NCBI GenBank assembly: GCA_905178155.1
Contig: CAJINV010000006.1
Coordinates: 1,067,516-1,115,826 of the forward strand
From: Amoebophrya sp. A120
Lineage: Eukaryota; Protista; Dinoflagellata
DNA length: 48,311 bases
Direction of reading: 5' to 3'
Below the pieces are notes generated by a model. That model was not told the DNA's origin and made no database searches. It was given only the letters and a program-made list of their open reading frames with translations. Shown here piece after piece: positions 14,664 to 38,085 of the stretch. The stretch's first letter is position 1. Every line of letters begins with the position of its first letter. Position numbers and translations under genes: made by a program.

Positions 14664-14803
14664 TGCTGACCGAAAACGTTTCTGAAGTTTCTGGAGTTAA
14701 TTACAATAGCCGATAGAAGTTGCAACAGCGACACAACGATAGTCCAACGCAGCTGCAACAAGAATCTGCAGGGTTCTTGCGATAGAAGAAAGCTGCTGGC
14801 AGC
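14664..14803. repeat. Dispersed non-coding repeat (second copy 23129-23269)
   Basis: GCTGACCGAAAACGTTTCTGAAGTTTCTGGAGTTAATTACAATAGCCGATAGAAGTTGCAAC shared. Confidence 0.85.
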
Positions 14804-15394
14804 ACCTGCAGTAACTGGGTTCATCTTCATTCATCGTGAGGCCGAGCCAGATGCTGTGTAGTTTGTACATGTTGCAAAAAGTAGAAAAGCAGGACCATGG
14901 TTATTTGTCGTGCTGCAAACGCGCGCTTTGAGTGCAGTTCCCTCAATAATTGTCATGCTTTTTTTCGTTCTTATCTTTCCTCTCGTGCTGAAGAGAATAC
15001 AAAACAGAAATAGATTTTTCGTACCTCGTTCTCGTAAGGCTGTATTCGCGCCGCACCAGCATGCCGTCGTACTCCTGTCGTGTGGATCAATAATTTCAAC
15101 AATACCCGCTGAAGCTGAACACATCCTTCGTCCGTTTCTCTCGTGAAGGTGATGTATTCTAGTCCGAAGTCGTGCAACGGTTGCGGTTGTGGTAGTTATA
15201 GTTTTTAGCAAGACAGCACTTGATCTTGTTTTCATCTCCCAGCAGGACCAGGAAGTGGCTTTGTAAAACCCGCTTGATTTTTTCCTTGTTTTCGTTTCTT
15301 TTGCCGCATTTATTTTGCGACTTTACATTCACTAAACGTAAACGTGACAAAACGTCGTCACTTTTGCAGAATCTTCTGTTGCTCCGCGTATTAC

Positions 15395-18300
15395 ATGCTT
15401 TTTGTACCTGCTGCTCCTGCTCCTGCTAGCGCAAAAGGAAAACGAAAAACATTCAGCATGTCCTTAGCCACCTTGTCGCCGCGTTTCTCGTTCTCGCGCG
15501 AACGCTTCTTTCGCCGCGGCGCTAGTTCTTGCAGTTCATTGTCACAAAAATGGCTGGCTTCTTCGGGTCTACTTCTACTTGTGGTTCATCACGACAAGAC
15601 CGGGCAGCTGCTAGGAGTGCAAGAAGCTTTGGCGGTCTCGTTCATGTCCAAGATGAAGATGAAGCTGCAGCAGAACAAAAAGAAAACCTCAACATTTGCA
15701 TCGAAGATCATGAAGGAGCGGCTTCCTGCTCGGGGCCTCCCAAGAAGTGGAAGAACGGGAGCACAGGAGCTACACACAACAGGTGGGAGCCACGATCATG
15801 AGGCCTTCTTCTACAACAAGACTAGCTCAACATCGGTGGAACAAGATGAACAAAGCTTCTTTTTGCAAAAGCACGAGGCTACCTTGAGCGGCGCGACTTG
15901 TTCGCTTTCGCGTGCGGAGCGTGGAAGGAACGGTATCACACAGAAAAGTACACCGAACCGAGTGCACCAGAGTCAGAAAATAAAAAAATTCAGAATCTGT
16001 TGTTGTTATGCTGCTACTTTACATAAATTGGCGCCATTCCAAAACTCTAAAAACAAGAACTCAAACTCTGTAGATACACAGAGTACTAGCGAGGCATTTT
16101 ATTTTTTGGTGTGCAAAAGAAAAAAAAATACAATTTTTACTGCGCGAAGGCTAGGAAAAGGGTGTTAGAATGAAAGTAAAAGTATCATCTCACGACGTCG
16201 GACGGCCAACAGGCACTTTTTTTTCCCGCAAACAGAACGGCATGACATGATAGTTCTTCTCGAGATACCCTGGTGAAAAGTACCAATGGGTTCTTTACTT
16301 TTCTGTACAATAAACGGAGGGCCTGGGGGCTACGGATACTGCCGCAACGCCAGCAGTGGCATGGTCAAGAGCGATTGCAAGCTTTGCATGAGATGTAGCG
16401 GTCGCAGTTGGCTGAAATACATCGATACAGCCACCGGAAGTGCGACGTCTTGGCAGCTGGATACGATGCCGCGGAGTTGGAGGGAGTTGGAGTTCAACAC
16501 GGGAACAGGGGAGCTGTTGAAGGGGGGCTGTGATATTCCAAGCGGGACGTTGGGAAAGATGAACCACAAGGCATGCCTGGAGAAAAATCTCGACAAATTG
16601 TACGAAGACCACGCTTGGAACGAGCAGGATCTAGACATCGACACTCCTCGTCTCGTTAATTTGAAGGTGAACGGCGATGTCTGGAGGCATTACACGGCAG
16701 AGGAGAATGTTAGATGCGAGGCACGGATGGCGATGAAGAAATCCGGAGCCTCGGGCTCCGTAGAAGTATGCATTGCAAATATGATGTCTGGGTCTGGAAA
16801 CTTGTAATGCTGCGTTGGGAATAGTGAAAAATGCCCTGTAATGCACAGCCAAGCATGAAAAATATCTGCGCTTCTTTGCGTTGCGTTTTTCTTTTTCGCA
16901 TGACAAACTGCGTTTTTGCATGACAAGCAAAAGGGTCTGCTCTTCTCGGACACGCGTCACAAACTTTTTAGTCATGCCAGACAAGCATGACAGACCTTGC
17001 ATCCTTCTAGACCCAGACATATTTGCACTTGATAAGAACAGCGCTTCGACAACGGCGGCTGGGAGACAGCTCCGAGTGGCAGTGTCGACTGGAATATGAC
17101 AGTGCACAACTCCCCCTCCCCCTCCCTTGTCATGCAAATTTCCCGAATCCAGGCTGTGCCTCTTGTCACTGTTTGCATGACAAGTTCTGGTAGCCCAAAT
17201 AGCACTACACTCCAGTTTAAATCTGTCATGCAAAGCCCGCATTTTTGCGAATGCTCGCATTGCCGTTTATGCTTATACAAATGAGGGGGAGGCGGGGGAG
17301 TTGTGCACTGTCATATGGAAGACACAGATGGCCCCCGTGGGGTGGCACAAGGTGGAACAGTGGAAAGAGATAGGCGATGAACTCGAGGAGGCCGCGCAGC
17401 GACTGGGCGACAATTTCTTTGTGGTCAGTTTGTCCGCCTTTGCTCCCTCCTGCGGTAGCGAGAAGTACTGCGGGGATTCAGACCACACATGGGATAACGA
17501 TGAAAACGATTTTGCGGCTCATCGCAACAACTGTGAGTGCAAGGCGTGTACGCGGTGCAAACTATAGTGTGTCTAGGTGTGGAAAAAATAAAACGGGCCT
17601 TGTGCTTCTTGTATCTTTAAAATATAAATATATAAAATTGCTTGTATAGCATTGGTGCTGCTGGCAAGTCTGCATTGCATAACCGACAGGGGCGGCGGCG
17701 CTTCCTTCGTCATCCAAAAGCGAAAGCGCAGACGTTGGTCGAGCTGTTTATGCAAATTGATAATTGGCACTACTCGTACTACCTATCAAGAGAGAAACTT
17801 GTCATGCTTTGTTGCATCATGTGAGTATGTCTGACCCATCCACTATTTGTCCGCATCGCAGGTGTGATATTCCAGACCCAGACACATTTGCATTTGATAG
17901 CGTGCTGCGAGAAGGTGGAGAGGGATGGCAGCTGGTTGGCCACGGTCGACAAATGGCGTTGCGGGGAGAGTGGGTTTTACTCGATCGACGACTATGCGAG
18001 GGAACAAATCAACAGCAAGATCCAACGCGCGAGCATCGAGTTATGGCACTCTCAAACGTTACACTGTCTATTGTCCTCTTATGATATTGACTTGTCCTGC
18101 AAAATGAAAATTGTCAGCAGCCTCGACAAGATTTTGAAGATCAAATAAAGCTACTTCGCGTGACAAATAATTTTGGAAGGGCTAAGAGGCATTGCAATCT
18201 GTGCCGAATTTGTATGTAATACGACTTCGACTTGCGCGGCAGGGCAATAAAGCGCCCTTCCTTTGTTCAACACTTTTGCTACTGTTGCATCTTCTTCACA

Positions 18301-21300
18301 AATTCGTGTAAAGAACAGCGACCAATGTAAACGTTTGTTGAAAACTTGATATGAAGGGGTAGAGCCCCCGTCAACTACATCCTCACCTACATCCTCAACT
18401 ACATCCTCACCTTCGCCTTCATCTCGCGCTGTCACAGAAACGCCTTCCACCACGCCGGCACCGCCTGCGGTTTATGCAATACAAATTTCCCGTAGCCGTA
18501 CATGTACAAGGTGCATTACAAATTTCACCAATTTATTGGAGTGTAACATCACTTGTAATGCTAAAATAGGACCACGGCTAAGTTTTGTCATGCAGAGACC
18601 GGATTTGTACGTGTTGTACGGGAATAAATTTCCTGTGGATATAGTCACGCCCGAGTCCACCACTACTTCGCTGCCGAGGACAGGTGAAATAAAGTCCGAC
18701 GAATCCTTATCTTGTGCAAAAGTATCGTACTCGTACAAATTGCTTTTATGCCTTACAAAGAAATATTTTTGTTAATAAGGCAAAAGCGCATTACAAAGGC
18801 CTAGGCCTAGGCTATGCTACCCAATGGGCAGCTAGGGTGTCTGAAATTAGCTTATACTTTTTACACGCGCCGCGGGCTAGGGTGGGTCATTAACAAAACG
18901 TGAGGAAAACCGGGCCTATCATTTCGCGCCTGCGCGGTAAAGGTTTAAGTACATAAAAGTGCATCAGACAACCAAACCTTCAAACAGGCCCCGCGGCAGA
19001 ATCCGTTTTCCCCTTAAATAAATGAAATTCTGTACAATCGCCTGGCGAGACGCAAAAGTAGATGAACCGACTCTCAATAAATAGCTGCCCCGTGGCGCTT
19101 CTTGAGTTTGTTTAGTGTGGCCGTAGTCCAAAAATCATTTGTTTTTTCTAAGCACAGCTGATGACAGCGCTCGTGGTCGTGCATAGAGTTTTTCACTTTT
19201 GGGTTACGGCCTCTCTGAGGAGGTCTGTCGACGTTGCTCCACTCAGGAGCAGGCTGTTCTTTTCTGTCACTGACAGGCGGTTCTGCGACCGCAAGTCTCG
19301 GCAATTCCCGAGCTCTTGTTTCTGGTGCGAACTTCGTACGGAATTCTCTTGGTGGGTTCATCTAGTGGTGCGCTGCGCGTTTCTTAACATTTTTTGAGGC
19401 CGTACGATTAATGGGCCCCCTTTTCGATACCGAAAAGGGGGGGGTAGGTACGGTCGGTCGTCTGGCCGTATCCAAAAGCGACCACTTCCCTCGGGACCCG
19501 ACCAGTTTTCGAATTTCAAAAATCAAAATGTCAGCCCATGACCCCCCCCCGCCCCGAAGTAGTTTTCTGCTTTGTTGACCACTAGTTGCGGCGCGGCTTT
19601 ATCAGCGTATAGCCCCTCTATTGCGGTTTCTGGGGTGTGGTTAGCAGAGGAACAAGCACACAACGCAATTTTTTTTTGGGGCGCGCGCTGCGCGCGCGCG
19701 CGTCGCGATATGCATACAAAAGTAAAGAAACTTCGGCGCGCGCGCTAAATAAATACACGCGCCACGCAGCGGAACGCATGGCGCATACGTGGTTACAATC
19801 CGCCGGCGCGGTGCAGCAAACCATGATCATCTGCAGGACAGATGAAGATCGAGCCCGGTTTATTATCGTCGTCGGCTCTGCCTCTCCGCCTGCACTGGGG
19901 CCGAGCATGGTGCGCGAGGTTTGTTGGCCCTTCTTCCGCCTTCAAGCTGAATAAGAAGCAAAGGGGCTTGCGACTTGGAATAAAGTATGCCGGAAAAGGA
20001 AAGAGCGCTTTGCCGCGACAACAACCATCGCCATTACCCATCCTGCGCGGGGTAGTGTGCAGAGGGTTAAAAAGTGGGCTAACTACAAAAAAAAACGCCT
20101 TCGGCTTCGCAGTAATTTGTAGCGCAGCACTGCGCTACAAGCACCCGGCGCGCCAAAGTGGTTGATGTGGGCATCTCAATTACTGAGATACCCGCTTCAA
20201 CAGCCCGAGAGCAGTCTTGGTCGCGCAGTTCTGCATTAGAAGTTGCGCCATGATCTACCGCGCCGCAAGTCTGTTTGTGCAGGAGAGTGACTTCTCAGTC
20301 GATCTACAAGCTTCCCCCTGAAGTACTGCGAAGCACCTCTTCTGCTTAAAACATGCTCAGTCACTCAAAATCAAATAAAAGCAAAACAGTTCTGCATGCT
20401 TTTACTTGAATGAGCTGCCGAGCTCCTACGATCTACTTACAAACTGCGCCCAAGCTACTGCTCTTTTTTTCGAGCAGTGGATCGGCGGCATACAACCAAG
20501 CGGGATTGCAGTCAAGAAGTTGTAGATAATTCATTGCGAGGCAGCTGCGCTGCTGCTCCGTGAAAGGTAGCCGTCTCCCTTTTGGGGAAAGAATGGCCCT
20601 CGGCTTCATTTTGAGAAACAGAAAGCACGTCTGCTTCGATTGATTTACTTCCCTTTTGGCGACGGAATTCTCTTGGTGGGTTCATCTAGTGGTGCGCTGC
20701 GCGTTTCTTAACATTTTTTTTCTTTCCTCGTTTCCATTTCTTGTCCTGTCGGTGTGCTTCGCTCGATCTCTAATCGGTTTTCGTCATCTCCCATGAGAAG
20801 AGCGACCTCTGTCGATCGTCTTCGTCTCGCCTTTTTTCTCGCTTTTTTCTCGACTGTTTTAGTTAGTTAGGCGAGCTTTCTTGCGCATACGTACGTAGAT
20901 CTCCTAGTGCCTTGGTACTTCGAGGTTTAGGGTCGGAACGTTCTCAGCACTGCTGAAGCTTAAGAAGAAAGGGGCGTGCACGCTCCGGCCTTCAGTTTGC
21001 TCCGCCTTTATCTTTTTGAAATCGCTTTACTATAATCCTCCTTTTTGCTTGCTTCCTGTTCCCCGGGCCCAACTGGCACCAAGCAGGTTTTTTCTCTCCT
21101 AGGGTTAGGCTTAGTTAGGCCGCCACCGCCGCCGGCACGGGATGGCTGCCGACGCGACCGTCTCACCTTCGATCCAGCCACCACCCTCATCTGCTGCTCA
21201 AGATCGATCCAGAAAGGGTTTAGTTTAGGTTTCAGGGTTTAGGAAGCAATCTTAACATTTTTTTTCTTTCTCTCTTTCTTTCTTTTGTACTTCTGGGTCT

Positions 21301-22968
21301 GCGTCCCCTCGTACCAACGGGCCTCTCTTCCTCCGTCAGCGGGGTTGTCAGGTTTTTGCGGTCTGGCGACCTACGTTCGCTAGTTCGGGCCGTTGTTGTC
21401 TCCGACGGTTTCGAGTTATAAAAGTTATGGTTTGTGTGACAAGGAGGCAACACGGGCCTAGCGAAGCGGCCCGGGTAGCCAAGGCAGGAACACAAAGCGG
21501 ATTTTTATAAAGAGATACCTCTCTACCATCCGGTCGAATATTGTTGTGGTCCCGGGCGGAAGACCTTAAACTCGACCCAAAGAAAGTAATGCCCTGCGGT
21601 TCAAGTTTCAATAAAATTTTTTTCCTTCCCTTCCCTCCCTTTTATTTCTCGTTACTGTTGTCGAGACAAAGCCCTTATCCCGCGGGGTAAGGGAGTGGGT
21701 TGTCAGGTTTTTGCGGTCTGGCGACCTACGTTCGCTAGTTCGGCCCGTTGTTGTCTCCGACGGTTTCGAGTTATAAAAGTTATGGTTTGTGTGACAAGGA
21801 GGCAACACGGGCCTAGCGAAGCGGCCCGGGTAGCCAAGGCAGGAACAAAAAGCGGATTTTTATAAAGAGATACCTCTCTACCATCCGGTCGAATATTGTT
21901 GTGGTCCCGGGAAGACCTTAAACTCGACCCAAAGAAAGTAATGCCCTGCGGTTCAAGTTTCAATAAAATTTTTTTCCTTCCCTTCCCTCCCTTTTATTTC
22001 TCGTTACTGTTGTCGAGACAAAGCCCTTATCCCGCGGGGTAAGGGAGTGGGTTGTCAGGTTTTTGCGGTCTGGCGACCTACGTTCGCTAGTTCGGCCCGT
22101 TGTTGTCTCCGACGGTTTCGAGTTATAAAAACGTGAGGAAAACCGGGCCTATCATTTCGCGCCCCACCCTAGAGGGTATTTCCACCCTAGTGCCCTGCGG
22201 CTCGCACTAGCGTGGTGCACCGAACTAGCCTGGGTCTAGACCACGGCCAGGCTAGGTTTCTGCATGCATATTTGCAATAATTACTACGAGTGCGATACTT
22301 TTGGTTTTGCGCAGGATAATCAATTGACGGAGACTACAACCAGGATGGTGATGGTACCCGTATCCAAGTGATGAAAACATCAAGTGTTAATATTTGCTCC
22401 GCCACAGAAGATGAAAGTAGTACGGAGTTTTATTTCGATACAAGAAGAAGATGAAGAAGTACTCACAGCGCAGTACGCGCACGCCGGGGGTAGGAATTTG
22501 CTGCTCTAGTATTTTTGCGTGGCAGCATGGTGTTTCCACGCATATTCGAGATGATTTTCGATTTCGTCCTTTGATGGACATTATAGTGAGCACGAAACTG
22601 GTGATAAAAAAAATTGCATATAGCCTAAGAACCATGTAAAGAGATGAACGCATAATTCGCTGTGGGATGGGCAGACGGACGGGGACACTTGATTTTCTTG
22701 TTTTCATAACCCTTTCTCCGGCGATGCGGGTGGTGTATCCTGGGCAAAAGTATCGTACTCGTAGTAATCGCAGTGATGCATTACAAATCTCGTTCATAAG
22801 GCAAATCAGCATCACAAATCCCATTTGTTATGAGGAGCGAATTTGTATTGCAATTACTACTAGTACGATACGTTTGCAGTTCATATGAAGCAGGCGCGGG
22901 CGATACTCCTCGGAACTTCGGCTGATGCGGGTGAAGTTGCCACCCAACGGGTTGGTGTGTGCTGCTGA
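15395..22968 (+). CDS. Gene 2: Cys/Trp-rich putative secreted protein with Ser/Thr/Pro tail (intron-rich paralog of 27299-28885); 3' end uncertain
   Basis: Exons 15395-15933, 16318-16766, 17040-17094, 17321-17548, 17905-18041, 18357-18472, 18647-18707, then tentative 22324-22360, 22714-22735, 22891-22968; aligns with paralog (CSGRSWLKYIDTATG, MAPVGWHK, ELEEAAQRLGDNF, SLSAFAPSCGS, CECxACC). Confidence 0.75.
15934..16312. mobile_element. Old/degenerate introner
   Basis: TATCACACAGAAAAGTA / TACTTTTCTGTACAATA; DR AACGG; frame restored. Confidence 0.8.
16767..17034. mobile_element. Introner family A
   Basis: DR AGAAG/AGAAC; absent in paralog. Confidence 0.9.
17095..17315. mobile_element. Introner family D
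   Basis: Perfect TIR TATGACAGTGCACAACTCCCCC; DR TGGAA; single TGGAA in paralog. Confidence 0.95.
17549..17899. mobile_element. Degenerate introner family A (TAC start)
   Basis: DR GCGTG; same position as 24266-24528; single GCGTG in the intron-free paralog. Confidence 0.85.
18042..18351. mobile_element. Degenerate introner family E
   Basis: Left end TATGGCACTCTCAAACGTTACA resembles 39469; DR decayed (CGAGT/TGAAG); frame restored. Confidence 0.65.
18473..18641. mobile_element. Introner family F
   Basis: AAATTTCCCGTA TIR; reverse copy of 25670-25820; DR decayed. Confidence 0.8.
18800..22256. mobile_element. CTAG-rich inverted-repeat element, itself split by a 3.2-kb insert bounded by a 36-bp duplication
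   Basis: CTAGGGTG motifs at left and CACCCTAG at right; terminal hairpin 22225-22255; 36-bp DR at 18895-18930 and 22128-22163; 58-bp DR at 19338-19395 and 20662-20719. Confidence 0.65.
21342..22130. repeat. ~353-bp tandem repeat, 2.2 copies
   Basis: Units start at 21342, 21697 and 22049 (GGGTTGTCAGGTTTTTGCGG...), nearly identical. Confidence 0.95.
22361..22708. mobile_element. Degenerate introner
   Basis: TAT...ATCAAGTGT / ACACTTGAT...ATA; DR ACCCG/ACCCT. Confidence 0.55.
22736..22885. mobile_element. Introner family B
   Basis: TIRs clear; DR TGGTG/TGAAG. Confidence 0.85.
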
Positions 22969-23996
22969 GGTCGCGTTTGTGATTCTTCAAATTATTTAAG
23001 AATTTGTATACGAGGGTAGTTCTAGTTACAGCCTTTATGCTATACGCGTTTCTCGATCGTGAGAAGGCAGTAAAGGGACTTATTTCCAGCCACAATGCTA
23101 TGCTGAAAAAGAAAACTTCACAATGCTATGCTGACCGAAAACGTTTCTGAAGTTTCTGGAGTTAATTACAATAGCCGATAGAAGTTGCAACCGCGATACA
23201 AGCTGTCCAAGTCCAACGCAGCTGCAACGAGGAGGTGCAGGGTTCTTGCGATAGAAAGCTGCTGGCAGCGCCGCCTCGTCCGACTTACATGGTGATTTAG
23301 TGATCATTCCTACTGTAAGCTGCAGCTCATCTTCTACCCTCGAGTTGTGTGAAGTAGATCAGGCGAAATTAATAGTGTGATCTCCAAGAAGCAAGTAAAA
23401 ATGTTGGATAAAATCGATGCTGGTCTAGACACAACGACCCCAAGGCAAAAATCAGGCTAATCCCCTTGCTCCGCACGACAAATTCACCAGATTCCGCATT
23501 ACAAACTCACCAGATTCTATGTTTTTGGATCCATTGCGACGGTTCGAAATAAAAAGCGCCGCTGTCGTCGGTCGTTCTGAGGATCATCTGAGCGCTCTGT
23601 GACAGCGCTCGATGTCGATGAGGAAATGTTGCATGTTGATGCATTTTTAGTCGTGCCATTTCTTGTGTCTGATCATCAATTTCAGAGTCAGGTATTTTCG
23701 ATCTTCTGTACCTTCGAGTTCGAACACCAGTTGAAGTTCTTTTTGGCGAGTTTATCATCCGTTTTTGAGATTTCAATTTATCCACAAGTAGTTATTGTAT
23801 TATTTGAGGTTTTTAACACGCACGACGACGACACACAGCTACGATTTTCTTTGTTTTGCAATCGAGGATATTTTTCGAAACCGCTCTCACTAACCAGCGT
23901 GATCAGGTGGAATAGTATAGTGCTTCTGAGTTCTTCTTCTTCTTCTTGAGTCAAGCAGAGACGAGTTTTAAATAAATCAAAAAGAAAATCTAAATC

Positions 23997-24135
23997 ATGC
24001 CTCAGAAGTCCCTCATCATGAAGAAAATGTCAATCGATGCGTTTTCTTGCGTGAAGACGTGGTCCTCGTTTTCTTGCGTGAAGACGAGCGTTCGCGCAGT
24101 CCACCTTGCCAGTACTAGGGGGCCGCAGCAGCAGA
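23997..24135 (+). pseudogene. 5' fragment of the gene 5 family (paralog of 46633-47090)
   Basis: MKKMS...WSSFSCVKTSVRAVHLAS matches gene 5 after removing its first introner. Confidence 0.65.
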
Positions 24136-24139
24136 TAGT

Positions 24140-24202
24140 GTTTTCATCATGCACATTTTAGCATCACAAATTTTTCAGACCCAGACATTTTTGCACTTGA
24201 TA
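24140..24202. mobile_element. Right half of a family A introner
   Basis: CAGACCCAGACATTTTTGCACTTGATA with no partner left TIR. Confidence 0.7.
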
Positions 24203-24265
24203 TGAGAACACCTGGGACGAGCATGAGGAGCAGGACCATTACGCTAATTGCGAGTGCGACGCGTG

Positions 24266-24528
24266 TATCAAATGCAAAAATGTCTGGGTCGTCTGGAAGA
24301 ATGCGAGTTTGCCATGCTTGTTTGGCATGACTCGAGAATCTGTGTTGCATAGGCACGAAAAGGCCCTCACCCTCTTACGTGTCATGCAAAAACGCAGTTT
24401 GCCATGCGGAGTACGTAAGAAAGGGCAGCCACAAAATTTGTCATGCATAGCTGCGTATTGCAGTGCGTCTACCATTCATTTTAAGCATTACAAGTTTGCA
24501 GACCCAGACCTATTTTTTGCACTCGATA
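24266..24528. mobile_element. Introner family A
   Basis: DR GCGTG. Confidence 0.95.
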
Positions 24529-24594
24529 GCGTGCTGCGCGAGGAAGAAAAGGGGCATGTCCGCGTTTACCTTCCGCGATAAGTGGCGCTGCGAC

Positions 24595-24885
24595 TATCCG
24601 GAGTAAAATAAACGTCCCCACCCCAGAGTTGTCTTGCAGAATTGCAATGACAAGGAAATTTGTGGTGCGCATACCCATGGTAGACATCTCCGATCGTGTT
24701 TTGGAATTTGTGATGCTGTGAACAGGAAAGGCAGATGAATCTGTGAAGATTCGGCTGCACTTGCTAACCTGCACTACTACACTGCGGAGTGCAACTTGTC
24801 ATGCGTGACTCCCAAAACTCCTAGGCTTGTGCTGCAAAATAATCCCCATCCTGACTCTGGTGTGGGGACGTTTTTACTCAGGATA
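24595..24885. mobile_element. Introner family C
   Basis: DR GCGAC. Confidence 0.95.
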
Positions 24886-25669
24886 GCGACGAGATGGGGT
24901 TCTACTCGCTCGACGCCTATGCTGGCTGGATTTCCCCTGGTATCGAACGCACGTCCACATTTCCTCCTACCACCGGCGCAACCCCGAGGTCGACATCAGC
25001 ACAGTCACCGGAAACGCCGGCGCCCGGAGATCCGAAAATAGCCGAGCAGGCACCGGAGACGTCCCCGCCCGGAGGAGGCCCGACAACAACCAAAGCTGCA
25101 CCGGAGACGCCCCCGCCCGGAAGAGGCCCGACAACAACCAGGGCACCGGTGAGTGAAAATTATACCGGTGACAATGTCGACGCAACTACCGGGAACCAGC
25201 GGCAAGCACGCATATGACAAAGAATAAAAGAAATACTCTAGCACCACCAGCCTTGATGCAGAGCCTATGCCTAAGTAAAAAGCAGGTGCAGGCTTGTGGC
25301 CCCAGAACCTAAGCCAAGCCACAGGTTTTGGCATCGTGCTAGAGAACATCATCTGGTCAACATTTTTAGACGTCCGAGAGGAAGCAAAGAACATCAAGCT
25401 GTTGCATTTCGATGTTTGCGCTCTTGCCTTGTTACAACTGCCATAGAAAATAAATCTGCTGGCGTGTGCTGTAAAAGTCTATTGAAGATGTTGAGTAAAA
25501 AATTAAAAGAAAAATATACTACGTTTACAAAGATGCGAAGATAATAAATTTTTACCTTCAAGAACTACAAGTGGTGCTAGAGTCATTTGCTTGCATAAGC
25601 AGGAAGAGATGAATGGGACGACCGCCCGGCCCTGCGCAATGAACATCATGATGGCCGCAGCACTCCAAA

Positions 25670-25820
25670 TATCCACAGTAAATTTCCCGTACACGTACAA
25701 ATGCGGTCTCTGCATGACAAAACTTGGCTTCGATTCTAGCTTAACATGACAAGTTTTACGCTCCTAATTGGCGAAATTTGTGACGCGCCTTGTACATGTA
25801 CGGGAAATTTGTATTGCATA
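25670..25820. mobile_element. Introner family F
   Basis: DR CCAAA; absent from homologous segment ~29830. Confidence 0.9.
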
Positions 25821-25988
25821 CCAAACCAGGAAGGCGTTGCTGGCGTTGTCAGCACCCCGGGCGAAATACCTCTTGACACCCCCCAGCACTCGGAGCTGCC
25901 CGATGAAGCCAAGTGCTGCGCAGGGGCAGATCATGAACGCGTGTTGGTGTTGTCCGGAACAAGAAGGCCGTGACAGCGTTTTAATACC

Positions 25989-26126
25989 TATCCTGTGCAA
26001 AAGTATCGTACTCGTATTGCAATCATGCATTACAGGGCAAATCCCCATTACAAATTTTATTTCTGACGCTGAGGAAATTTGTAATGCATTTATACGAGTG
26101 CGATACTTTTGGTTTTGCAGCTCATA
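25989..26126. mobile_element. Introner family B
   Basis: DR ATACC/ATGCC; empty site TTAATACCATG at ~29990-30000. Confidence 0.9.
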
Positions 26127-27298
26127 ATGCCATGCACTTAGCTATCATGATGATGATCACGAACAATGCCACTTCTGTACTACCTGTACTAGATTTAAAC
26201 AAAATCTATAGCGTCTAGACCCTTCTCCTTCTCGTCTGCACCAGTGTAATTTTTCGTATCATTTTCCTTTTCATTTCACCCCAGCCCCACGGAACAGCTC
26301 CGTCCGACAACATTCCAGAACTTCCGTATATTAGATGTGCATCGTTTATACAAATTTTTTTCTTTAGAAGATTCTTTTTTTCGTCATTCACATTCAAATT
26401 TTTACATTCGACCCTTATCTTCCTATGTGTCGCACCATGATTAAATGTTGCCACTGAAGACTTTCTTACTCGTTATTGTCTTTCTGCAAACAACCATGAA
26501 GGAAGTAGTGCGTACATGTAGACCTCCAACTTCTAGTAGCCTGATTTCAATACCAGCTCCCCCGTCCTCGTGCTTTCCCCCTGCTTCCCCCATCAAGACA
26601 GAGACCTGAAATAAACGTGCGAACCCCGACAAGAAATAGCAGTTGTGACTTAGGGCCTGAGAAGATCACAGTTCCTAGTAAGCCTGCTACTTGACCGCAA
26701 CAAGATGCGACGTTCTGAATGTACCAGTATAATATGATCCGATCTGTGCGGTAGTGGTCCTCCTGGACAAGCAGAGCTACGATTTGTCGTGCTAGTTGTA
26801 TTATGATTATCATTTTGTGGTATTCTCAATATCAATTCTCGTGCTATATTTCGTTCTTTTCTGTCGTGCTGATGCTGAAGAGAAAATAAAATCGTGCTGG
26901 ATTCGTACTTTTCGAAGTTGTAATATTTGCGGCGGCGCCGCACCGGCGTGCGGTCATACTTGTTGTACTCCTGTCGTGCGGACCAATTTCAACAAGACCC
27001 ACAAGAAATGTCTTCCGTTTCTCGTTTCTCCGTTTCTCTCGTGTTGGTGCGTTGTAACGCTTAGTAAAAGTTGTAGTTAAATTTAGCACGACGCGACTTC
27101 GTCTTGTTTTCATCTCCTTCTCCAGGAAGTGGTTTTGTACACGAACCCGTACCTTGATTCCCGTGTTTTTGTTTCATCTTTTGCCTCATTCATTTTTCGC
27201 GAATTTTGATTTTCATTCACTAGACGTCACAAAAGGAAACGTCGGCAGCTTTGTAAGTACAACCGAACCTATTCTTGTTGCTCCGTGTAAGTATTCAT

Positions 27299-28885
27299 AT
27301 GATTTTTGTACCTGCAGCTCCCGCTAGTCCTTGTGCAAAAGCAAAAGGAAAAACGACCAGCATGATGTTCTCGTCCTCCACAACCGCCTTCCTTCGGCGT
27401 GAACAAGGCCCGTCCTCGCGCGGACGCTTCTGTCGCCGCGGCAGTTGCAGTTCATTGCCACAGTGGCTGGCTGCAGCTGGGGGTCTAGTTGCGATTTTTC
27501 TCGACAAGAGCGGGCTTCCAGGAGTGCAGGACGCCGTTGCGTTGTCGTTCATGACAAAGATGAAGATGAAACTGCACCAGCAGAGGAAGAAGTCCTCTGT
27601 TTCGGAGATGGAGCAGCTTCCTCGACGGAGGAGTCCAACAGGTACTGTAACATCAACTCCGGTCATGAACGAACAAGGGGACAAAAAGAGTCGGTCTCCA
27701 CCTGGAAGGAGCGGCTTTCTGGAACATCAAAGGCAGGGGCGCAGCACGAGAATAAAAAAAATGAAAGCGAAGTGTCATGGAAAGGAGCTGTTTGAGTACG
27801 TCGCGGCTGGAGGACCGCGTAACTACGATTACAGGCACGACGGCCATGGCATGGTAAAAAACGAGTGCAAACTTTGTCTCAAGTGCAGTGGTCGCAGCTG
27901 GCTGAAATACATCGATACCGCCACCGGACAGGCGACATCGTGGCAAATGAAGAACACGCCGCGCAACTGGAGGTGGGAGAAATACAGTTACTGTGCAAAC
28001 GGGGAAAACCACGGAGGGTGCCTCGAGAGCAATCTTGACGAGCTCTACAAAAATGGGTGGAACGAGGGGCATCTCACGTTCTTTGGAGATGCGCCGGACT
28101 ACGACCGGAGCCCCAACATTGTTGACAAAGACGGGCTCCACCACCTGGAGGGCAGATGCGAGGCGCGGACTGCGATGAAAAAAAGGGGACTTTCGGGTCC
28201 CTTACAGCAGCGCTTTGACAGCCATGCGTGGGCCACAGCTCCGAGCGGGGAGGGCATTGACTGGAAAACCAGAATGGCCCCCGTGGGGTGGCACAAGACT
28301 GCGGCCTGGGAGAACATCAGCAATGAACTGGAAGAGGCCGCGCAACGGCTGGGGGACAATTTCCTCGTTGTCAGCTTGTCAGCATTCGCTCCCTCCTGCG
28401 GTTCCCGTTTGTACTGCCGCGGCACCTCCGCCGGCTACACCTGGGATGATCACAGTGCCGCGGCCCGTTACTCCATTTGCGAGTGCGAGGCGTGCTGCGG
28501 GAGGACTGAGAGGGAAATGTCCTTGTTTAGCTTCCGCGATATGTGGCGTTGCGCCGAGATTGGGTTTTTCTCCCTCGACGTTTATGCCGGCAAGATTTCC
28601 CCTGATATCGAACGCACGTCCACATTCCCTTCTACCACCGCACCCCCGGAGACGCCGGCGCCCGACAAACCGAAAACCGCACCCCCGGAGACGCCGGCGC
28701 CCGAAAAACCGAAAACCGAGGCACCGAAGACGCCGGCGCCCGAAAAACCGAAAACCGAGTCACCGGAAACGCCGGCGCCTGCAAAACCGAAAACCGAGGC
28801 ACCGGTGAGTGAAAATGCTGGTGACAATCATGTCGACGCCAACGGGAACCAGCGAGAGCAGCTGCTGCAGCCTGCACGCATATGA
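27299..28885 (+). CDS. Gene 3: intron-free Cys/Trp-rich putative secreted protein with 13-aa Pro/Lys/Thr repeats
   Basis: Single ~528-aa ORF; hydrophobic WLAAAGGLVAIFL segment; APPETPAPEKPKT-type repeats x4 (~28640-28800); paralog of gene 2. Confidence 0.85.
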   Translation: MIFVPAAPASPCAKAKGKTTSMMFSSSTTAFLRREQGPSSRGRFCRRGSCSSLPQWLAAAGGLVAIFLDKSGLPGVQDAVALSFMTKMKMKLHQQRKKSSVSEMEQLPRRRSPTGTVTSTPVMNEQGDKKSRSPPGRSGFLEHQRQGRSTRIKKMKAKCHGKELFEYVAAGGPRNYDYRHDGHGMVKNECKLCLKCSGRSWLKYIDTATGQATSWQMKNTPRNWRWEKYSYCANGENHGGCLESNLDELYKNGWNEGHLTFFGDAPDYDRSPNIVDKDGLHHLEGRCEARTAMKKRGLSGPLQQRFDSHAWATAPSGEGIDWKTRMAPVGWHKTAAWENISNELEEAAQRLGDNFLVVSLSAFAPSCGSRLYCRGTSAGYTWDDHSAAARYSICECEACCGRTEREMSLFSFRDMWRCAEIGFFSLDVYAGKISPDIERTSTFPSTTAPPETPAPDKPKTAPPETPAPEKPKTEAPKTPAPEKPKTESPETPAPAKPKTEAPVSENAGDNHVDANGNQREQLLQPARI

Positions 28886-29128
28886 CAAAGAATACGCAAT
28901 ACTCTAGCAGCCTGCTGAAAGCAAAGCCTAAATAGCGAACAGGTTATTTGATGTGGCTCCATATAAGCCAAGCTACAGCTTTTGGCGTACCAGAGAACAT
29001 TTGGTCATCAACATCTGACGGACTAGAGGGACGAGCAAAGAACATCAAGCTGTTGCATTTCGATTTTTGCGTTGCGTTGTGACAACTACAACAGAAGATA
29101 AATTTGCTGTCGACGACGTGTGTAAAAA

Positions 29129-29655
29129 TGTTGGTCATGGAAATCGATCCCGCACACACGTAACACGATCGCCCCAAATGACGCCTGTTCCCAATGAAAT
29201 GACAGTTCTGAGTGACCTGAACTAGCTAGATCCTTAGGGAAATGGTCAGAATCTATCTAGATCCTAAAGGAATCTCTTCACCATGTTCCGCGAATCCCCC
29301 AAATACTACGAAGGCAAAGCCATCAGGATCGTAGTGAAATGAATGGACTCAGCTCGGTCCAGACGTTCAGAATGGTCGCCCTGGGGGACTTGACTCCCGC
29401 CAGGGTCGAGCACCAATCTGAGCAGGTTGAGGGATGGACTCCCATGCTGTTTTGCCACTTGACTCCGGACCCGATTGGTCCATATGAATCTGATGAATTT
29501 GGATGAATTGAACCTACAGGATGTAACGCAGCAAGAGACTTGCGTCACTTGCTTGCTTACTTGCAATTGAGAGAATTCATCGAATTGCTGTTGATAACGA
29601 GCTCAGAGGAGCAAGCGTGTGTAAGTGTGTGCGAGTGTTCTCAAGTCCATTAACA
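29129..29655. mobile_element. Probable solo LTR (527 bp)
   Basis: TGTT...AACA termini with ATGGA/TCCAT inverted motif; A-run TSD; absent from homologous segment at ~25470. Confidence 0.65.
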
Positions 29656-30972
29656 AAAACTCTATTGATGTTGAGGAAAAATAAATAGGAAAATTTTCCA
29701 TACAAAGACGCAGAGATTACGTGCAACAGGAACAAGTGGTGCTAGAGCGATTTGCTTGCATAACGTGGACGACCAAGTAGAGATCAACGGGACCGGTCTG
29801 CCCTGAGCAATGAAGATGATGGCAGCACTCCTCCACAACAGGAAAACGGTGGGGGTGGTGGCGTCCCGCACGAAAAGCCTCTACTTGACACCCCCCTCGA
29901 CTCGGAGCCGTCCGAAGCCAAGTGCTGCCCTTGAGAAGAGCATGATGAACGCGTGTTGGTGTGGTCCTGAAGAGGGCCGTGAGGACGTTTTAATACCATG
30001 TACGTAGCTACTTATCATGATCACGAACAAAAATGCCACCTCTGTACTACCTGTAGTGAACAAAATCAAAATCTAGAGCAGCTAGATCGTGCCTGTCCGC
30101 ACCAGTATATTTTTTTTGTATCCTTTTCATTTCACAATCACATTCACCCCACGGAACAGCTCCGTCCGACAACATTCCAGAACTATCGTCTAGATGTGCA
30201 TCGTTTGTACAGATTTTTTTCTTTATTTTAGATCGAACGACATAGACATCTTTATTTTAGATCGATCGGATCCTTTTTTTTCGTCACTCACATTCAAATT
30301 CTAATTCTCAACAATCGACTCTCAATAGTTTTAGTTGCCTATGTAAGAACACTACAACTGTGCTCCTTATGTGGAGCGTTTCACCCTGCAGACTGACATT
30401 AAACTGAGCTTTGCCGTCTGTTAGAACACGAAATACACCATGTAGGTCGGCGGGTGTGTCGACGACCTACGGTACCAGTATCCACGTAACTGTTTGAGCA
30501 TGGGGAAACGCACAGCATCATCATCGTCATTCGTCATCTCTCAGTTGCTCTACCTCTCGGAACATCGGGATTCCGCTCATGGAAGTGAAGGACGAGGACC
30601 TGATTTCATGATCGTGGGTTTCGAGTGGGATTTGGATCAGTACATGGTCGCCATGATCGCCATTAGTTACATGGTGATTTAGTGATCATTCCTACTGTAA
30701 GCTGCAGCTCATCTACCCTCAAGTATGAAGTAGATCAGGCGACATTAAGTAATAGTGTGATCCCAGTAAGCAAGTAAAAATGTTGGATAAAAATGTTGGA
30801 TAAAATCAGACCCGGTGGCAGGTCTTTTTCAAAAAGTGGTTTGCACGCAAGCTACGGGGCCCGTTGTCCGAAGCAAGCCGGCGCTTATTTCGTTCCGGTG
30901 CTTCTTCGGTGCGCGAGGCGCGGTCACTGAAAGCGTTCTTCTCAGAGGATCTTCTCGCCACCTCGAGCAAGT

Positions 30973-32452: not shown

Positions 32453-34370
32453 TGCTCGGCGCAGCGCTCCAACTATCAACTTACTTTGCAAAACAACTGT
32501 GACAGCAGCTTCAGGCCCAATTACTCAGGTTGACATGTAGAGAGGATTGGCAGTCATCGATTTATTACATCTATACGCGGACCTTTAAGGAGATTGTGTA
32601 TATGATTCTTAATGGTTGAGCACGAACTGCCTCTCCACGCAAGACAGATTCACTGGCTCCGCTCCTGTCTTTTTGAAAAATGTATGATGTTTGTTTTGGT
32701 CTACTTTTCTGCTCCTGTTTTTTTGAAAAATGTATGATGTTTGTTTTGGGAATAAGGGTCTGCTTTTTATCGTTTTACTAAATTTGTCATGCAAATTTGC
32801 CATTCGGCAACAAATTGCCGCTCTCGAAAAAAGCATGCTCCTACATCGGTGCTACATCCTGTATGATTTTCAATGGTTTATTTTCCTGGATCTTCGTGTA
32901 TGATTTTCAAATGGTGATTAGCGCGGCGTCAATCGCCATCGCATTTACCAACTATTCTCTTCATCGAGCATGACATATTCGCACTGTATACTTTTTGCTT
33001 TTCCAGCCAAATTGTCAAGGTATCGAATCGCCAAGATAGCATTACGAAGTCGTATCTTGCACTAGACCATAGGGGTTATTCTTATTAGAAGGAAAAATCG
33101 CATTACATCGTGGGGCAAAGTCGTTTTTAGCCTCACAAATTTGGGGACGGTTTTAAGGAAACGAAATGCACTAACATCGGGAAAGGAGATAAAGCATTGC
33201 GAAACCGCACCTAACTGCGGTCTAGTTGGTTTACTTGGGATAATATTCATCGCGTTCTAACCTCACCACTTCGAAACTAGGTCCTTCAAGACTGAACTGA
33301 TTCTCATGCAGAACAAGAGGAAAAAAATTGCTAAGATGATGTACATCAATTCCAGTCTGTCACATCAGGGAGAAAAGTCAGGTCTGGTGTAGTGACAAAG
33401 CTTCTATCTTTCCACACAACTCTACTACTGATTTGTCGGCGCTTGACACAGAGACAGATACTTACTGGCGCACGTGTTCGGTGGTTGTTGCCTTTAGACT
33501 GGGAAAAAAATCCAGTAAGCACTCCTGAGAGCCGCGGTTTGGTGCTGGCTAAAAGCGTCAGATGGCGATTTCGAGTTTCTTGCGGTCTACATTTGTTCAC
33601 ACTGCTATCATGCACCCATCGGGCAAATTCCTGCCGCTGCTCACAAGCGCATGTTCTCACGAAGGACGTCTGGATCGCACTCGAAGGCGATGCTGTGCGA
33701 CTTGATGCACCTGTATGAGTCGCCGCCCTAGTTGTGATCTACTACTTCTACTGTGTGAATACTGTGTGTAGTAACCCCGGAGGGAGGAGCGTCGCAGGCT
33801 CCTGTAGTTCATCAGTTCTTACTTGTTATGCACCATTTTGATTTTCTTTGGCAGTCAAACTGTTTTTTTCTTCCTCACTACTTCAACGACAGGAAATAAT
33901 GCTTATCGGTGTAGGTAAGTACTACTAAATCGGCAGCGGACAACATCTTTTTCATGAATAGTATAGACTAACGTTGTGCGGTTCATCGGCGATTCAGGAT
34001 CTCCGAACGCAGAAAGTCATTCGGTTCGTAGATATTGACAGTTTTCGTTTATACATCCGCTTGTCGGGAGCAAATTGAAATTCAGATTCGGGTCAGGTCG
34101 ATGCTGAAAACACGGAAATTAAAAGTAGAATCGGTTTTGTTCTTTATTATTTTCCATTTCCACCACGACCCGCAGCCACGGGCTATCGAAGCTACCAGGT
34201 AAATTATATTTTTCGGTTGTATGATCCACGCACGGCCACGGACGTGGTAGTCAAGTCTGTCTCTGTTTGTTGTACTACGCTGGCTTGGTATTGCTTTCTT
34301 ATTTCTTGCTATTGCTTGACAGTGACGCGCTTCGGTCGTATCTTGATGGTGTGTCGTCGGTTCCAACATG

Positions 34371-36930
34371 TTTCCCGCTTGTGCACCTCAGAACAAGGTC
34401 ACGCTTTTGCATCTTCGTGGTAGGCTACCTAGCGGGTTCGCCGGGCATCTTCATGCTCTTGCATCTTCATGCTCTTGCATCTTAGCGGGTTCGCCGGGCC
34501 CGGGGGGGCGGGGGGGCTGTCGCCCGCAAGGAAGCGACGGCGGATTACCTTACGGGGGATCTAGATGGAACAAAGGGGCGCCCCCCAAAGTGGGGCAGTA
34601 GCATCGGGGGAAGGGCTTGCTAAGCTGGAACCGCGGTCGGCCGCGTGGGCGGCCAAAAGGTGCGCCAAAAACGCAGCCTCCCACCGGGGGAAGGTGTAAA
34701 AATGGTGATTTTCGCGTCCATGGGCCCATTGGTATCCGAAAAGTGAGAGTTTTTTTGTGTCGCGAATCCACCCGTTACGCTTGCGAAAAAGTAGCGAACT
34801 TGTTGGACCCTCCGTGGGTCCGCAGTAACATCGTCTTTCGCAAGAAAAAAATGAAAAAATGAAAAAAAAAATCGCCCATTTGTAAAGGGCCTTGCGCTCA
34901 ATCCGAAATTTGTCAGGCCGCCAAACACGGCGGCATGGTGAAAGCGTACTCAGTGTATAGTCGTGCTTGGGGGTGTGATGTTTTGCCATTTTTGGGACAG
35001 AGGCCTCCGCCTGATCAAGCGGATTCTCGTCGTGTTTGAGGTGCAAAAGCGCCGCCCACAAAAATGCAAGAAATGAAAAAAAAAAGCTCAAACGAAAACA
35101 AGCAAAAACCACACGACCGCCATATCGTGCGGGGTAACATTAGGCGCGACGGTATGGCGCGCCACGCCAGTTTTTGGATTCTCGCGCGACCGTCCCCGCG
35201 CAGCCCGAGCCCCGCCCGGCCCGCCCCCTGCGGGGGCGCCCTTGATCCGTTCCACTCTTCGCAGCACTCTGGGGCAATTCCTTTCTGGCCCAAGAAGAAG
35301 GCTGTGAAGAACAAGAGCGGAGCGGGGTCGCAGCCGTTGGGCCCAGACCTCGTTATCGCGCGCGGCCGTCGAAATGCGCGCGTCGCGGTTTTTGCTTCGC
35401 AAAACGAAGTGCGCAGCGATTGATCACCGTATCGCCCTCCGGGCGCGACCTTAATATTTCCCGCTTGTGCACCTGAGAACAAGGTCATGCTCTTGCATCT
35501 TCGCGGTAGGCTACCTAAACTCATCCATCGCAAACGCAGCGCGAACGCAGCGCGAAGGCTTTGCCGTTGCCATATGGGAGGGACTCGGGAGTATGCAATC
35601 ACTCGCAAAGTCGGGCATTTCTAAGTGTGTTTTGCCTTCAGAAAGCGGATCGGCGGGAATTTATGTGAATTTTGTCGAAAGCAGCCGAAACAGCAATTAC
35701 CAAGCGGGAAGAGGGTAAAAAAGAGCAGTTTTGCTGCTCCGCCCGGTCTGAATCTGAAAAAAGAGAGTGGCATTTTCGGCTAGGGTCGATGGTGTGATGC
35801 GTTTCATAGCGGAAATTGCGTCACTTCCGGGCAGCTCCAGCCGCTTAAAAATTGAAAAAAAGTGCTTAAAAAGTGTGATTTTTCGCAGCATGCAAGCAGC
35901 CGACAAAATTTACCGATTTTCTGCAGTCCCCGGGAAGTGCTTAGAAATTGAAAAAAAAGACGAGAAAAGTTACATTTTTCGCAGCGTGGAAGCGGGCAAC
36001 AAAATTTGCCGATTTTCTCCAGTCCCCGGAAAACGCTTGGAAATTGAAAACGACAATTTTCGCTGGAAAAGCAAAAGCCGCTTAAAAATTGCCGCTCAAA
36101 AGGGGTTCGCAAAATTTTCCGCAGGCCCGTACCACTGGGATTGGACGAAGAGAAACCAATTATCAGCAAGCCTGTGGAGGTGTGTCACACGGGCACGGTT
36201 TTCGGCCTCTCTGAAGTCGCAAACTGGAACCCTTCCCCCGCTTGGAAAAGCCCGATCTGGGTGGCCCAAAAGGCCAGCCGATAGATGAGCGCTATGGCAT
36301 AGTGGCCCTCAGAGAAGGCTACTTTGTTCCAAGGGGCATCGAAAGGATGCCCCGCTGCGAAATAGCAGACCGGATTTCGCCTTCAATGCTTATCGCAGGA
36401 GCCTGCGGGCCGCCGCGGGCTCCACCACTTCCCCGCGGCCCCAGTTTGTCATGCAGGGGGCGAGAAAGGATGCCCCGCTGCGAAGGCGGATGGGGGGGGG
36501 TCCGGGGGGGGCTTGCCCCCCCGGCCAGATACCTTCCGGGCCAGGTGGTCAGTTTGTGATGCAGGGGGCGAGAAAGGAGGCCCCGCTGCGAAATAGCAGA
36601 CCGGATTTCGCCTTCAAAGCTTATCGCAGGAGCCTACGGGCCGCCGCGGGCGACAGTAGTTGTCCGCGGCCCAAGGGCCGCGAGCACAACTGCGGCCCGC
36701 GACCCAAGAAGAAGAAGTGGGAATCTAGAAATTAAAAAGAAAATGGCGAAAGCGCAGCCCGCGGGCCGCGGCGATGTTACAAAAAGGTAGGTGGGCCTTC
36801 GCGCTGGTTAGATTTTCGCGCACGCATTTGGTTACCAATATCGCCCTCCGGGCGCGACCTTAATATTTCCCGCTTGTGCACCTGAGAACAAGGTCATGCT
36901 CTTGCATCTTCGTGGTAGGTTACCTAAACT
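34371..36930. repeat. Repeat-rich non-coding region with a three-copy 61-92-bp direct repeat and internal duplications
   Basis: Copies at 34371-34431, 35430-35521, 36839-36930; ~100-bp tandem units 35850-36050; duplication ~36343-36420 / ~36575-36650. Confidence 0.8.
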
Positions 36931-37035
36931 TTCTCATTCTGGCTGCACAGCCGCGTTGACATAAAAACTTCCTCAGATATTGTTGATTCCTGCTCTGCAG
37001 TTGGTACAGCCCGAATCCATTTTTTCAAGTCACGT

Positions 37036-38085
37036 TAGACCAGAAAATCGGAAGAAGTGCATACTTTTTCGCGCACCCGCTGGCATGGCGGGCCGCTTTC
37101 GTTTCGCTCCGGGGGTGGTGGGGTGCCCCGACAACACACCCGGCCCGAGAACCTCGCTGCGCCATGCAGCGGCGCGGGCGTTGTGGCTTGTTAAAGAGAG
37201 CCGGGGTGGCCTCCCGGCCTCCAAGCCTGCCAAGAGCGAGAAGCGCCGCCCCGCCGAGCGGCCTCTCCGCGGGCCCATCCCTGTCGGGCCGGTGCGCCGC
37301 CGCCATGTTTTTGGCCGGAACTGCATGGGCCTGCTCGCCGTACCGGAGGGGCCGGCCCTTGAAGCAGTAGGGCGCGCGCCCCTCAGGTGGGGCCTGCTTC
37401 GGCCCCAACAGCCGCCCGCCCCTCAAGTGGGGGGCAGGGAAGGGGGGGCCCGGAAGGCGCGCGCGCCCCCCCCTTCTGGGGGGGGGGGGGGTAAAAAGGG
37501 GGCCGAATTGGGCCAATTCTATCCCCTCTTTTAGGGGGGGGCAAAAAATGGCCTTCCCCCGATGCTCAGGGGGGAGCAAAATGAACAGAATCCGGCTCAT
37601 TTTACCCCCCCCCTAAAAAGGGGGGGCGAATCATTTCAATTCAGCCCCCCTCTTTACCGCCCCCCCCCCCCCGGCAGGGGGAGGCGCGCGCGCCTTTCAG
37701 GGGGCCGGCAGTTCACCCGGCGGCCGGGGGCCCCGGAAGGGAAAGGGCGCGCCCGGCCGCAGCAAAGGCGCGAGCTTTCCGGGCTGTGCAGGGCTTCGCC
37801 TTGGGGCCCCGGAATGCACGCCGCGTCGGCTGTGTGTCCCCGACGTGGGCCCCGCGCGGGGGCGGGTGGCGAAGTGCTGGCTGCGTGCCGTCACCTTCCT
37901 AACTACGCCAGGCCGACCCGCCCCGGTTCCGGCCGCGCAGCCGCAATGCCGGAGGCTAATTTTTCCGGGATAAAGCAGCCCGGAACGCGGTCGCGACTTC
38001 GCACCCCCCGACTTCATTCCGCCCACGACCCCCATTGCAAGGGGATGCGCAAAAAAACATGTACTTCTTCCGATTTTCTGGTCTA
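37036..38085. mobile_element. Non-autonomous fold-back DNA transposon (MITE-like)
   Basis: Perfect 23-bp TIR TAGACCAGAAAATCGGAAGAAGT, extending imperfectly; inner ~100-bp inverted repeat ~37454-37696; no credible ORF. Confidence 0.8.

Follow-up and report, generated by a model that had tools for sequence, protein, structure and literature searches.

As described in PMC7789003 and PMC12130899, the introners of the dinoflagellate Amoebophrya sp. A120 are elements of ~150–380 nt with non-canonical borders, terminal inverted repeats (TIRs) and direct repeats of 3–5 nt; they are removed from RNA, include diverse TIR families and resemble non-autonomous TIR DNA transposons. The A and B elements discussed here, which lie in a 48,311-nt stretch of the A120 genome (contig CAJINV010000006.1, positions 1,067,516 to 1,115,826 of the forward strand; hereafter the window, in whose coordinates all positions are given), are alike in their borders, repeats, approximate size and removal from RNA. 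As opposed to the comparison of A25 and A120 orthologues in PMC7789003, this locus provides a presence/absence case among tandem paralogs: three copies of one gene, A, B and C, carry 9, 6 and 1 elements, respectively. The sites are probably empty for the most part in C because introners entered A and B after a tandem duplication that was probably near-simultaneous, the elements apparently being removed from RNA and not from DNA. The locus exemplifies introner biology of a known kind and includes one candidate for a clean loss.

Where C has an empty site (Table 1), the filled counterpart in A or B is a TAT..ATA element between 5-bp repeats, and these unfilled targets bear out the 5-bp duplication made by Amoebophrya introners. 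The repeats are perfect 5-mers at AACGG, TGGAA, GCGTG (twice), GCGAC and CCAAA and imperfect at the other elements; the single TGGAA, GCGTG and ATACC that an earlier note on this DNA had read in C are all present, although the B repeat at the last of them is imperfect (ATACC/ATGCC). At their ends the A and B elements bear TIRs of the length taken as diagnostic (8–20 nt or more), with up to 20/20 terminal matches, which rank above 99.7% of random TAT-anchored pairs for the elements B1 and A2 and above 98.4% for A4. All three belong to a 16-member element family that occupies unrelated sites in the window, so that related copies at unrelated sites are demonstrated for part of the A and B elements and not for each one. 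Since only one position is common to the elements of A and B, no loss has to be invoked for most of the empty sites in C, and gains after duplication, one of the options raised earlier, cover all the A-only and B-only sites. In the 60–62 codons aligned in all three copies, the other two B sites are empty in both A and C, whereas TGGAA and the two A sites 5′ of it fall outside the comparison with B, from which this region is missing. A single target copy is to be expected whether a site was never filled or was vacated by precise loss, and therefore cannot separate the two; of the precise losses that had been proposed, GCGTG remains a candidate, while the other empty sites require none. That a DNA-like contig is identical to C across 26293–28718, with zero differences, shows that the absence of elements there is no artefact of assembly.

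The route of removal was read from assembled contigs, in which rare variants are dropped, of runs whose RNA or DNA nature we inferred from coverage (X4 was read as RNA and X2 as DNA). Joints were compared over the A region 14800–18890, in 30 bins and with one informative DNA-like sample; X6 and X7, which cover 3/30 and 11/30 bins, carry little weight, and the raw-read RNA runs X9 and X10 contributed 0 and 1 reads. One 2058-nt contig of X4 skips six A elements over this region, each with one 5-bp repeat, and 6/6 fully contained joints occur at a depth of 45.7, most element interiors being without cover. In X2, all 30 bins were covered at a depth of 42–44 in unique parts, element bodies and flanks alike; two contigs (14800–16795 and 17873–18736) cross three whole elements unbroken, and, among the joints listed, exact element-free joints had depth 0 at all six A positions. 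With joints in the RNA-like run and none in the DNA-like run, the elements behave as introns, as published, and appear to be cut from RNA and kept in DNA. For three B elements it is the deposited gene model by itself that backs RNA removal; X3, devoid of cover over the unique part of B (25049–25570), was not used as expression evidence.

These data also bear on the suggestion of a programmed removal of the elements at the DNA level, with C as a fixed excised form. Akin to the internal eliminated sequences (IESs) of ciliates, the elements are short, lie between short direct repeats and are removed exactly together with one repeat while the other is kept, which recalls the use of pointers in these organisms. 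To remove their IESs, ciliates rely on having a separate somatic nucleus, which is not known here. Unlike ciliate IESs, the elements at this locus are retained in the DNA-like assembly but missing from the RNA-like one, to which the six exact joints are confined; C itself keeps an element; and the account in PMC7789003 is one of RNA-supported introns. Programmed DNA excision would be far weightier if true, but the data point against it and we consider it scarcely credible.

Why should A and B carry so many more elements than C? With the intron density given in PMC7789003, 1.42 per kb of coding sequence (CDS), 2.5 introns are expected in C and its count is unexceptional (P of 1 or fewer = 0.29), whereas A with its 9 introns is the outlier (P = 0.001; both Poisson without overdispersion). 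Target-site quality is alike among the copies (mean weight 0.97, 1.14 and 1.06). The three paralogs rank in element load as they do in the rate of protein change, with branch lengths of 0.57 for A, 0.37 for B and 0.16 for C, the slowest, and C may stay element-poor through being the most constrained copy. The excess of elements in the faster-evolving copies fits the link, described in PMC7789003, whereby non-canonical introns favour less conserved genes. Four of the B elements (24266, 24595, 25670 and 25989) lie in bins with a summed depth of 18,000–190,000 at 90% likeness, compared with 27–42 for the intron that B shares with C, and because of this far higher depth they look younger than the shared intron.

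A phylogeny of the paralogs, which the earlier note had proposed as a check, left three topologies that fit equally. Using the distant fourth A120 paralog P0005 as outgroup, the approximately unbiased (AU) test gave p-AU values of 0.465, 0.468 and 0.581 on 225 columns and of 0.526, 0.465 and 0.46 on 62 columns: the tree of A, B and C is a star and the duplications look nearly simultaneous. Of the sites within 60 common codons, 42 unite B and C to the exclusion of A, whereas the other pairings have 17 and 10, but the 42 may be A's own changes; at four-fold sites, B and C differ at 13/60 and A and C (core) at 23/59. Shared introns conflict, as GCGTG pairs A with B and the element at 28881 pairs B with C (the tail of A is not alignable there). 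The spacing from TW to EC, 12 residues in B and C and 14 in A and P0005, reflects a 2-codon deletion 5′ of GCGTG and is alone in favouring B+C. We also considered C as a mosaic (5′ from A, 3′ from B), for which the synonymous divergence (dS) by the NG86 method, 0.34 at the N-terminus versus 1.15 in the core, was weighed; a simpler count (12/50 vs 49/132) was not significant (p = 0.11), and the idea was rejected. The spacer at 26400–26790 matched none of the flanks.

In the history that we favour, a near-simultaneous tandem duplication would have yielded A, B and C, and introners, probably mobilized as non-autonomous TIR DNA transposons that make 5-bp target duplications, would have inserted into A and B thereafter, C having undergone either slower gain or stronger purging; a deletion leaving half an element may have truncated B. 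Several points weigh against this history: (i) A holds 9 elements in 2058 nt and C 1 in ~2690 nt (binomial p = 0.003), a contrast for which chance alone is a weak explanation and which keeps a purge of C among the candidates; (ii) there are 3–4 B-only gains and 0 in the homologous part of C (p = 0.125–0.06); (iii) the faster rate of A holds in only 2/3 alignments (unique changes in A vs C of 21 vs 6, p = 0.006; 20 vs 6, p = 0.009; and 16 vs 13, p = 0.71); (iv) the depth differences among B elements may reflect family size instead of age; (v) the 2-codon deletion common to B and C favours their pairing, and hence a loss in C; and (vi) at GCGTG the A and B elements (A4 and B1) agree in site, subfamily and orientation, and the site is no hot spot, ranking 87 of 186 under a matrix from 32 elements.

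Point (i) suggests that cDNA-mediated conversion of its 5′ two thirds might have purged C of several introners. Exon 1 of C, 1756 nt, is indeed without any element, every empty site lies inside the transcript, and dinoflagellate trans-splicing and retro-transposed transcripts are described in PMC7789003. However, one site only is shown to have been common to both other copies, the intron count of C is genome-normal, and C has kept its 3′-most intron, between empty sites. Reverse-transcription-mediated intron loss is expected to favour 3′ introns. Because the retained intron sits between empty sites, the cDNA-mediated conversion put forward earlier is unlikely as one whole-length event, and we hold a purge of this kind to be improbable. 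Nor can C be a simple retrocopy, which the earlier note had rightly judged a poor fit: an intron is kept, and homology to A at 79% identity reaches ~340 nt upstream of the starts of the RNA-like contigs, which lie at the same CAG/GAAG point in the two copies (27124 in C and 15249 in A).

GCGTG was described earlier as occupied in both other copies and empty in C, and so it is; the junction in C is exact, with a single copy of the repeat. A4 and B1 fall into one 5-member subfamily (support 98/96). Whichever of six outgroups is used, the divergence of A4 is ~3 times that of B1 (p under 0.001; 74 vs 23 with A2), a ratio that parallels the longer protein branch of A and fits a single insertion. 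GCGTG is likely to represent a single old insertion whose decay was faster in A. C may have split off before that insertion, which is quite possible if short of probable. A precise loss from C once it had separated from B, whether spliced cDNA recombined with the gene or a break was repaired across the 5-bp repeat, is a serious candidate too, though we would not call it the probable course of events. It is in keeping with the common subfamily and orientation of A4 and B1, whose clade is not rejected (p-AU 0.41), with a divergence ratio resembling the one between the protein branches of their host copies (1.07 for A and 0.36 for B), and with the 42 sites and the 2-codon deletion that unite B and C. 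On the other side stand the equal fit of the three topologies, the possibility that the 42 sites are changes in A, and the count of exclusive columns, of which A4 shares no more with B1 (11) than with three unlinked copies, A2 (10), e10821 (8) and e41371 (12); moreover, no loss is needed if C split first. Reverse-transcriptase-mediated precise loss would leave the single GCGTG of C exactly as it is, but here an ancestral element in the line of C is no more than putative, and the 3′-most intron is kept. cDNA recombination and repair across the repeat would produce the same junction, and sequence cannot discriminate between the two. A precise loss at GCGTG can be reconciled with later gains in A and B at the remaining sites.

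Alternatively, A4 and B1 could be independent insertions at a site never filled in C. Their end branches differ markedly (0.82 vs 0.14), and the closest relative of B1 in the window is A2 (74% identity) and not A4 (55%). In Dothideomycetes, according to PMC4457414, introner-like elements occupy near-identical positions across species, possibly through separate, parallel gains within a 15-bp window, and their decay has been used to gauge age, as here; the present pair lies between paralogs and agrees in nucleotide, subfamily and orientation, all of which chance would have to supply at a site that is average under the 32-element matrix. The faster rate of A can account for the difference in branches. 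We think parallel gain unlikely. The weights that we attach to these three accounts of GCGTG are a judgement and were not computed. A recent conversion carrying the element from A to B was rejected, since the sequence to either side of B1 resembles C and A4–B1 identity is only 55%.

If loss did occur, introners may be able to leave DNA without a scar, a cut element being repaired across its 5-bp repeats and GCGTG in C being a fixed case; we regard this as rather improbable, but, if true, it would help to explain how the most constrained paralog stays near-clean in an introner-flooded genome. A literature search, subscription papers aside, brought up no account of Amoebophrya paralogs that differ by introner loss, and the main text of PMC7789003 contains ‘intron loss’ and ‘excis’ 0 times each. 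If proven, the loss at GCGTG would document clean introner loss in Amoebophrya directly, and a genome-wide screen of paralogs could then measure loss against gain.

The earlier note had held that this third gene, our C, lacks every introner. This proved incorrect, as an RNA-like contig splices out an 887-nt intron, and the exons of C without 28880–29766 give the deposited protein P0002 exactly. The intron has non-canonical borders and encloses an element with TAT..ATA ends and an ACGCA/ACGTG direct repeat (3/5 positions), which aligns with B 25213–25597 at 280/343 identical columns (82%) if the nested insert of 527 nt is left out of the count. Its inverted repeat, an 8-nt perfect match that is longer in B, is weak (4.5% and 4.8% tails against random pairs), the B counterpart is its only relative within the window, and its depth is single-copy at 90% likeness. 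The element is a putative decayed introner. The nested insertion resembles a solo long terminal repeat (LTR), and its summed contig depth of 1000–1600, compared with ~25 in the flanks, marks it as repeated elsewhere in the genome. The homology of C to 14900–18040 and 24203–26400 is borne out by self-BLAST, in which 14942–17456 matches 26825–28402 and 24529–26366 matches 28490–30225, but these intervals do not delimit the copies, A being longer (15249 to ~23158) and B 5′-truncated. Homologous flanks, likewise, exist upstream of C, whereas what was taken for a downstream flank is the intron, last exon and 3′ untranslated region (UTR) of the C transcript.

Table 1. Positions of the paralogs, their elements and the empty sites of C within the window.
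Feature	Position	Strand	Remarks and support
Paralog A (P0003, 573 aa)	15249..23158 (end approximate)	+	9 introners; exon set reproduces P0003
A introners 1–5	15934–16312, 16767–17034, 17095–17315, 17549–17899, 18042–18351	+	joints in RNA-like contig
A introners 6–9	18473–18641, 18708–22318, 22361–22708, 22736–22885	+	joint of sixth and donor side of seventh in RNA-like contig
A4	17549..17899	+	decayed introner at GCGTG in A
Paralog B	24203..26410	+	3′ fragment, 5′-truncated, frame open; in-silico product contains deposited P0004
B elements	24266–24528, 24595–24885, 25213–25597, 25670–25820, 25989–26126	+	start of B adjoins half element ending at 24202
B1	24266..24528	+	fills GCGTG in B; shares subfamily and orientation with A4
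Upstream flank of C	26780..27123	+	homologous to A upstream 14900–15248, outside RNA-like contig; 79% identity, 292 columns
Gene C	27124 to beyond 30500	+	RNA-like contigs
C exon 1	27124..28879	+	intron-free (annotated CDS from 27299); RNA-like contigs 27124–28718 and 28730–28879 unspliced
Empty TGGAA in C	28262..28266	+	filled only in A; region missing from B
Empty GCGTG in C	28490..28494	+	filled in A (17549–17899) and B (24266–24528); sole loss candidate
Empty GCGCC in C	28551..28555	+	B has GCGAC plus element; A has GCGGG, empty
C intron	28880..29766	+	887 nt, ends AT..GT; RNA-like contig joins 28879 to 29767
Putative decayed introner-type element in C intron	28881..29762	+	common to B; ends, repeat, B alignment
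Nested insertion in C intron	29129..29655	.	TG..CA with AAAA repeat, not in B; ends read, depth
C exon 2	29767..30500	+	CDS to 29934, then 3′ UTR; RNA-like contig
Empty CCACA in C	29833..29837	+	filled only in B
Empty ATACC in C	29993..29997	+	filled only in B

The family to which the paralogs belong appears to be small. The C protein matches two proteins of A120, namely P0002 (C) and P0003 (A), and a profile search of 1.84 billion representatives returned four proteins in total, these two together with P0004 (the deposited B model) and P0005, all from A120 and none from outside it. No Pfam family was found for P0001, P0003 or P0005, an Atlas search gave no usable match for the A/B/C family, shorter and longer homologue searches found no homologue, and a metagenome scan found no relative. 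The proteins combine a hydrophobic N-terminal stretch, a Cys-rich core and a tail rich in Pro, Ser and Thr that ends close to a CC pair (15395–23000, 24203–25988 and 27299–29934); that they act at the surface or are secreted is guesswork.

Some traces of rearrangement lie around A and B. A block at 89% identity is present on both sides of A (14664–14806 and 23129–23272) and is a possible trace of tandem duplication. Between A and B, 23285–24202 contains a fragment resembling 30667–30792 and 47035–47084, which belong to another gene family; it abuts the right half of an introner, which in turn abuts the first surviving exon of B. Because the frame of B is still open, its truncation looks recent. 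The seventh introner of A (18708–22318) is split by a 3.3-kb insertion that is bounded by a 36-bp direct repeat (18895–18930 and 22128–22163) and carries a tandem repeat of ~350 bp, yet all 3.6 kb are still skipped whole in the RNA-like contig.

Elsewhere in the window, a single introner is split into halves (1773–1933 and 5704–5818; window 1773–5818) that lie ~3.8 kb apart, and in the insert between them are three purine-rich open frames (255, 470 and 388 aa), for which Pfam gave no family above cut-off. Positions 1–57 hold a tandem GGGAAACC repeat, unlike the telomere motifs TTTAGGG/TTTGGGG given for A120 in PMC7789003. Finally, 34368–38085 is GC-rich and gene-poor, with three copies of a 64–92 bp repeat (34368, 35430 and 36839) and an inverted pair at 37036/38036.

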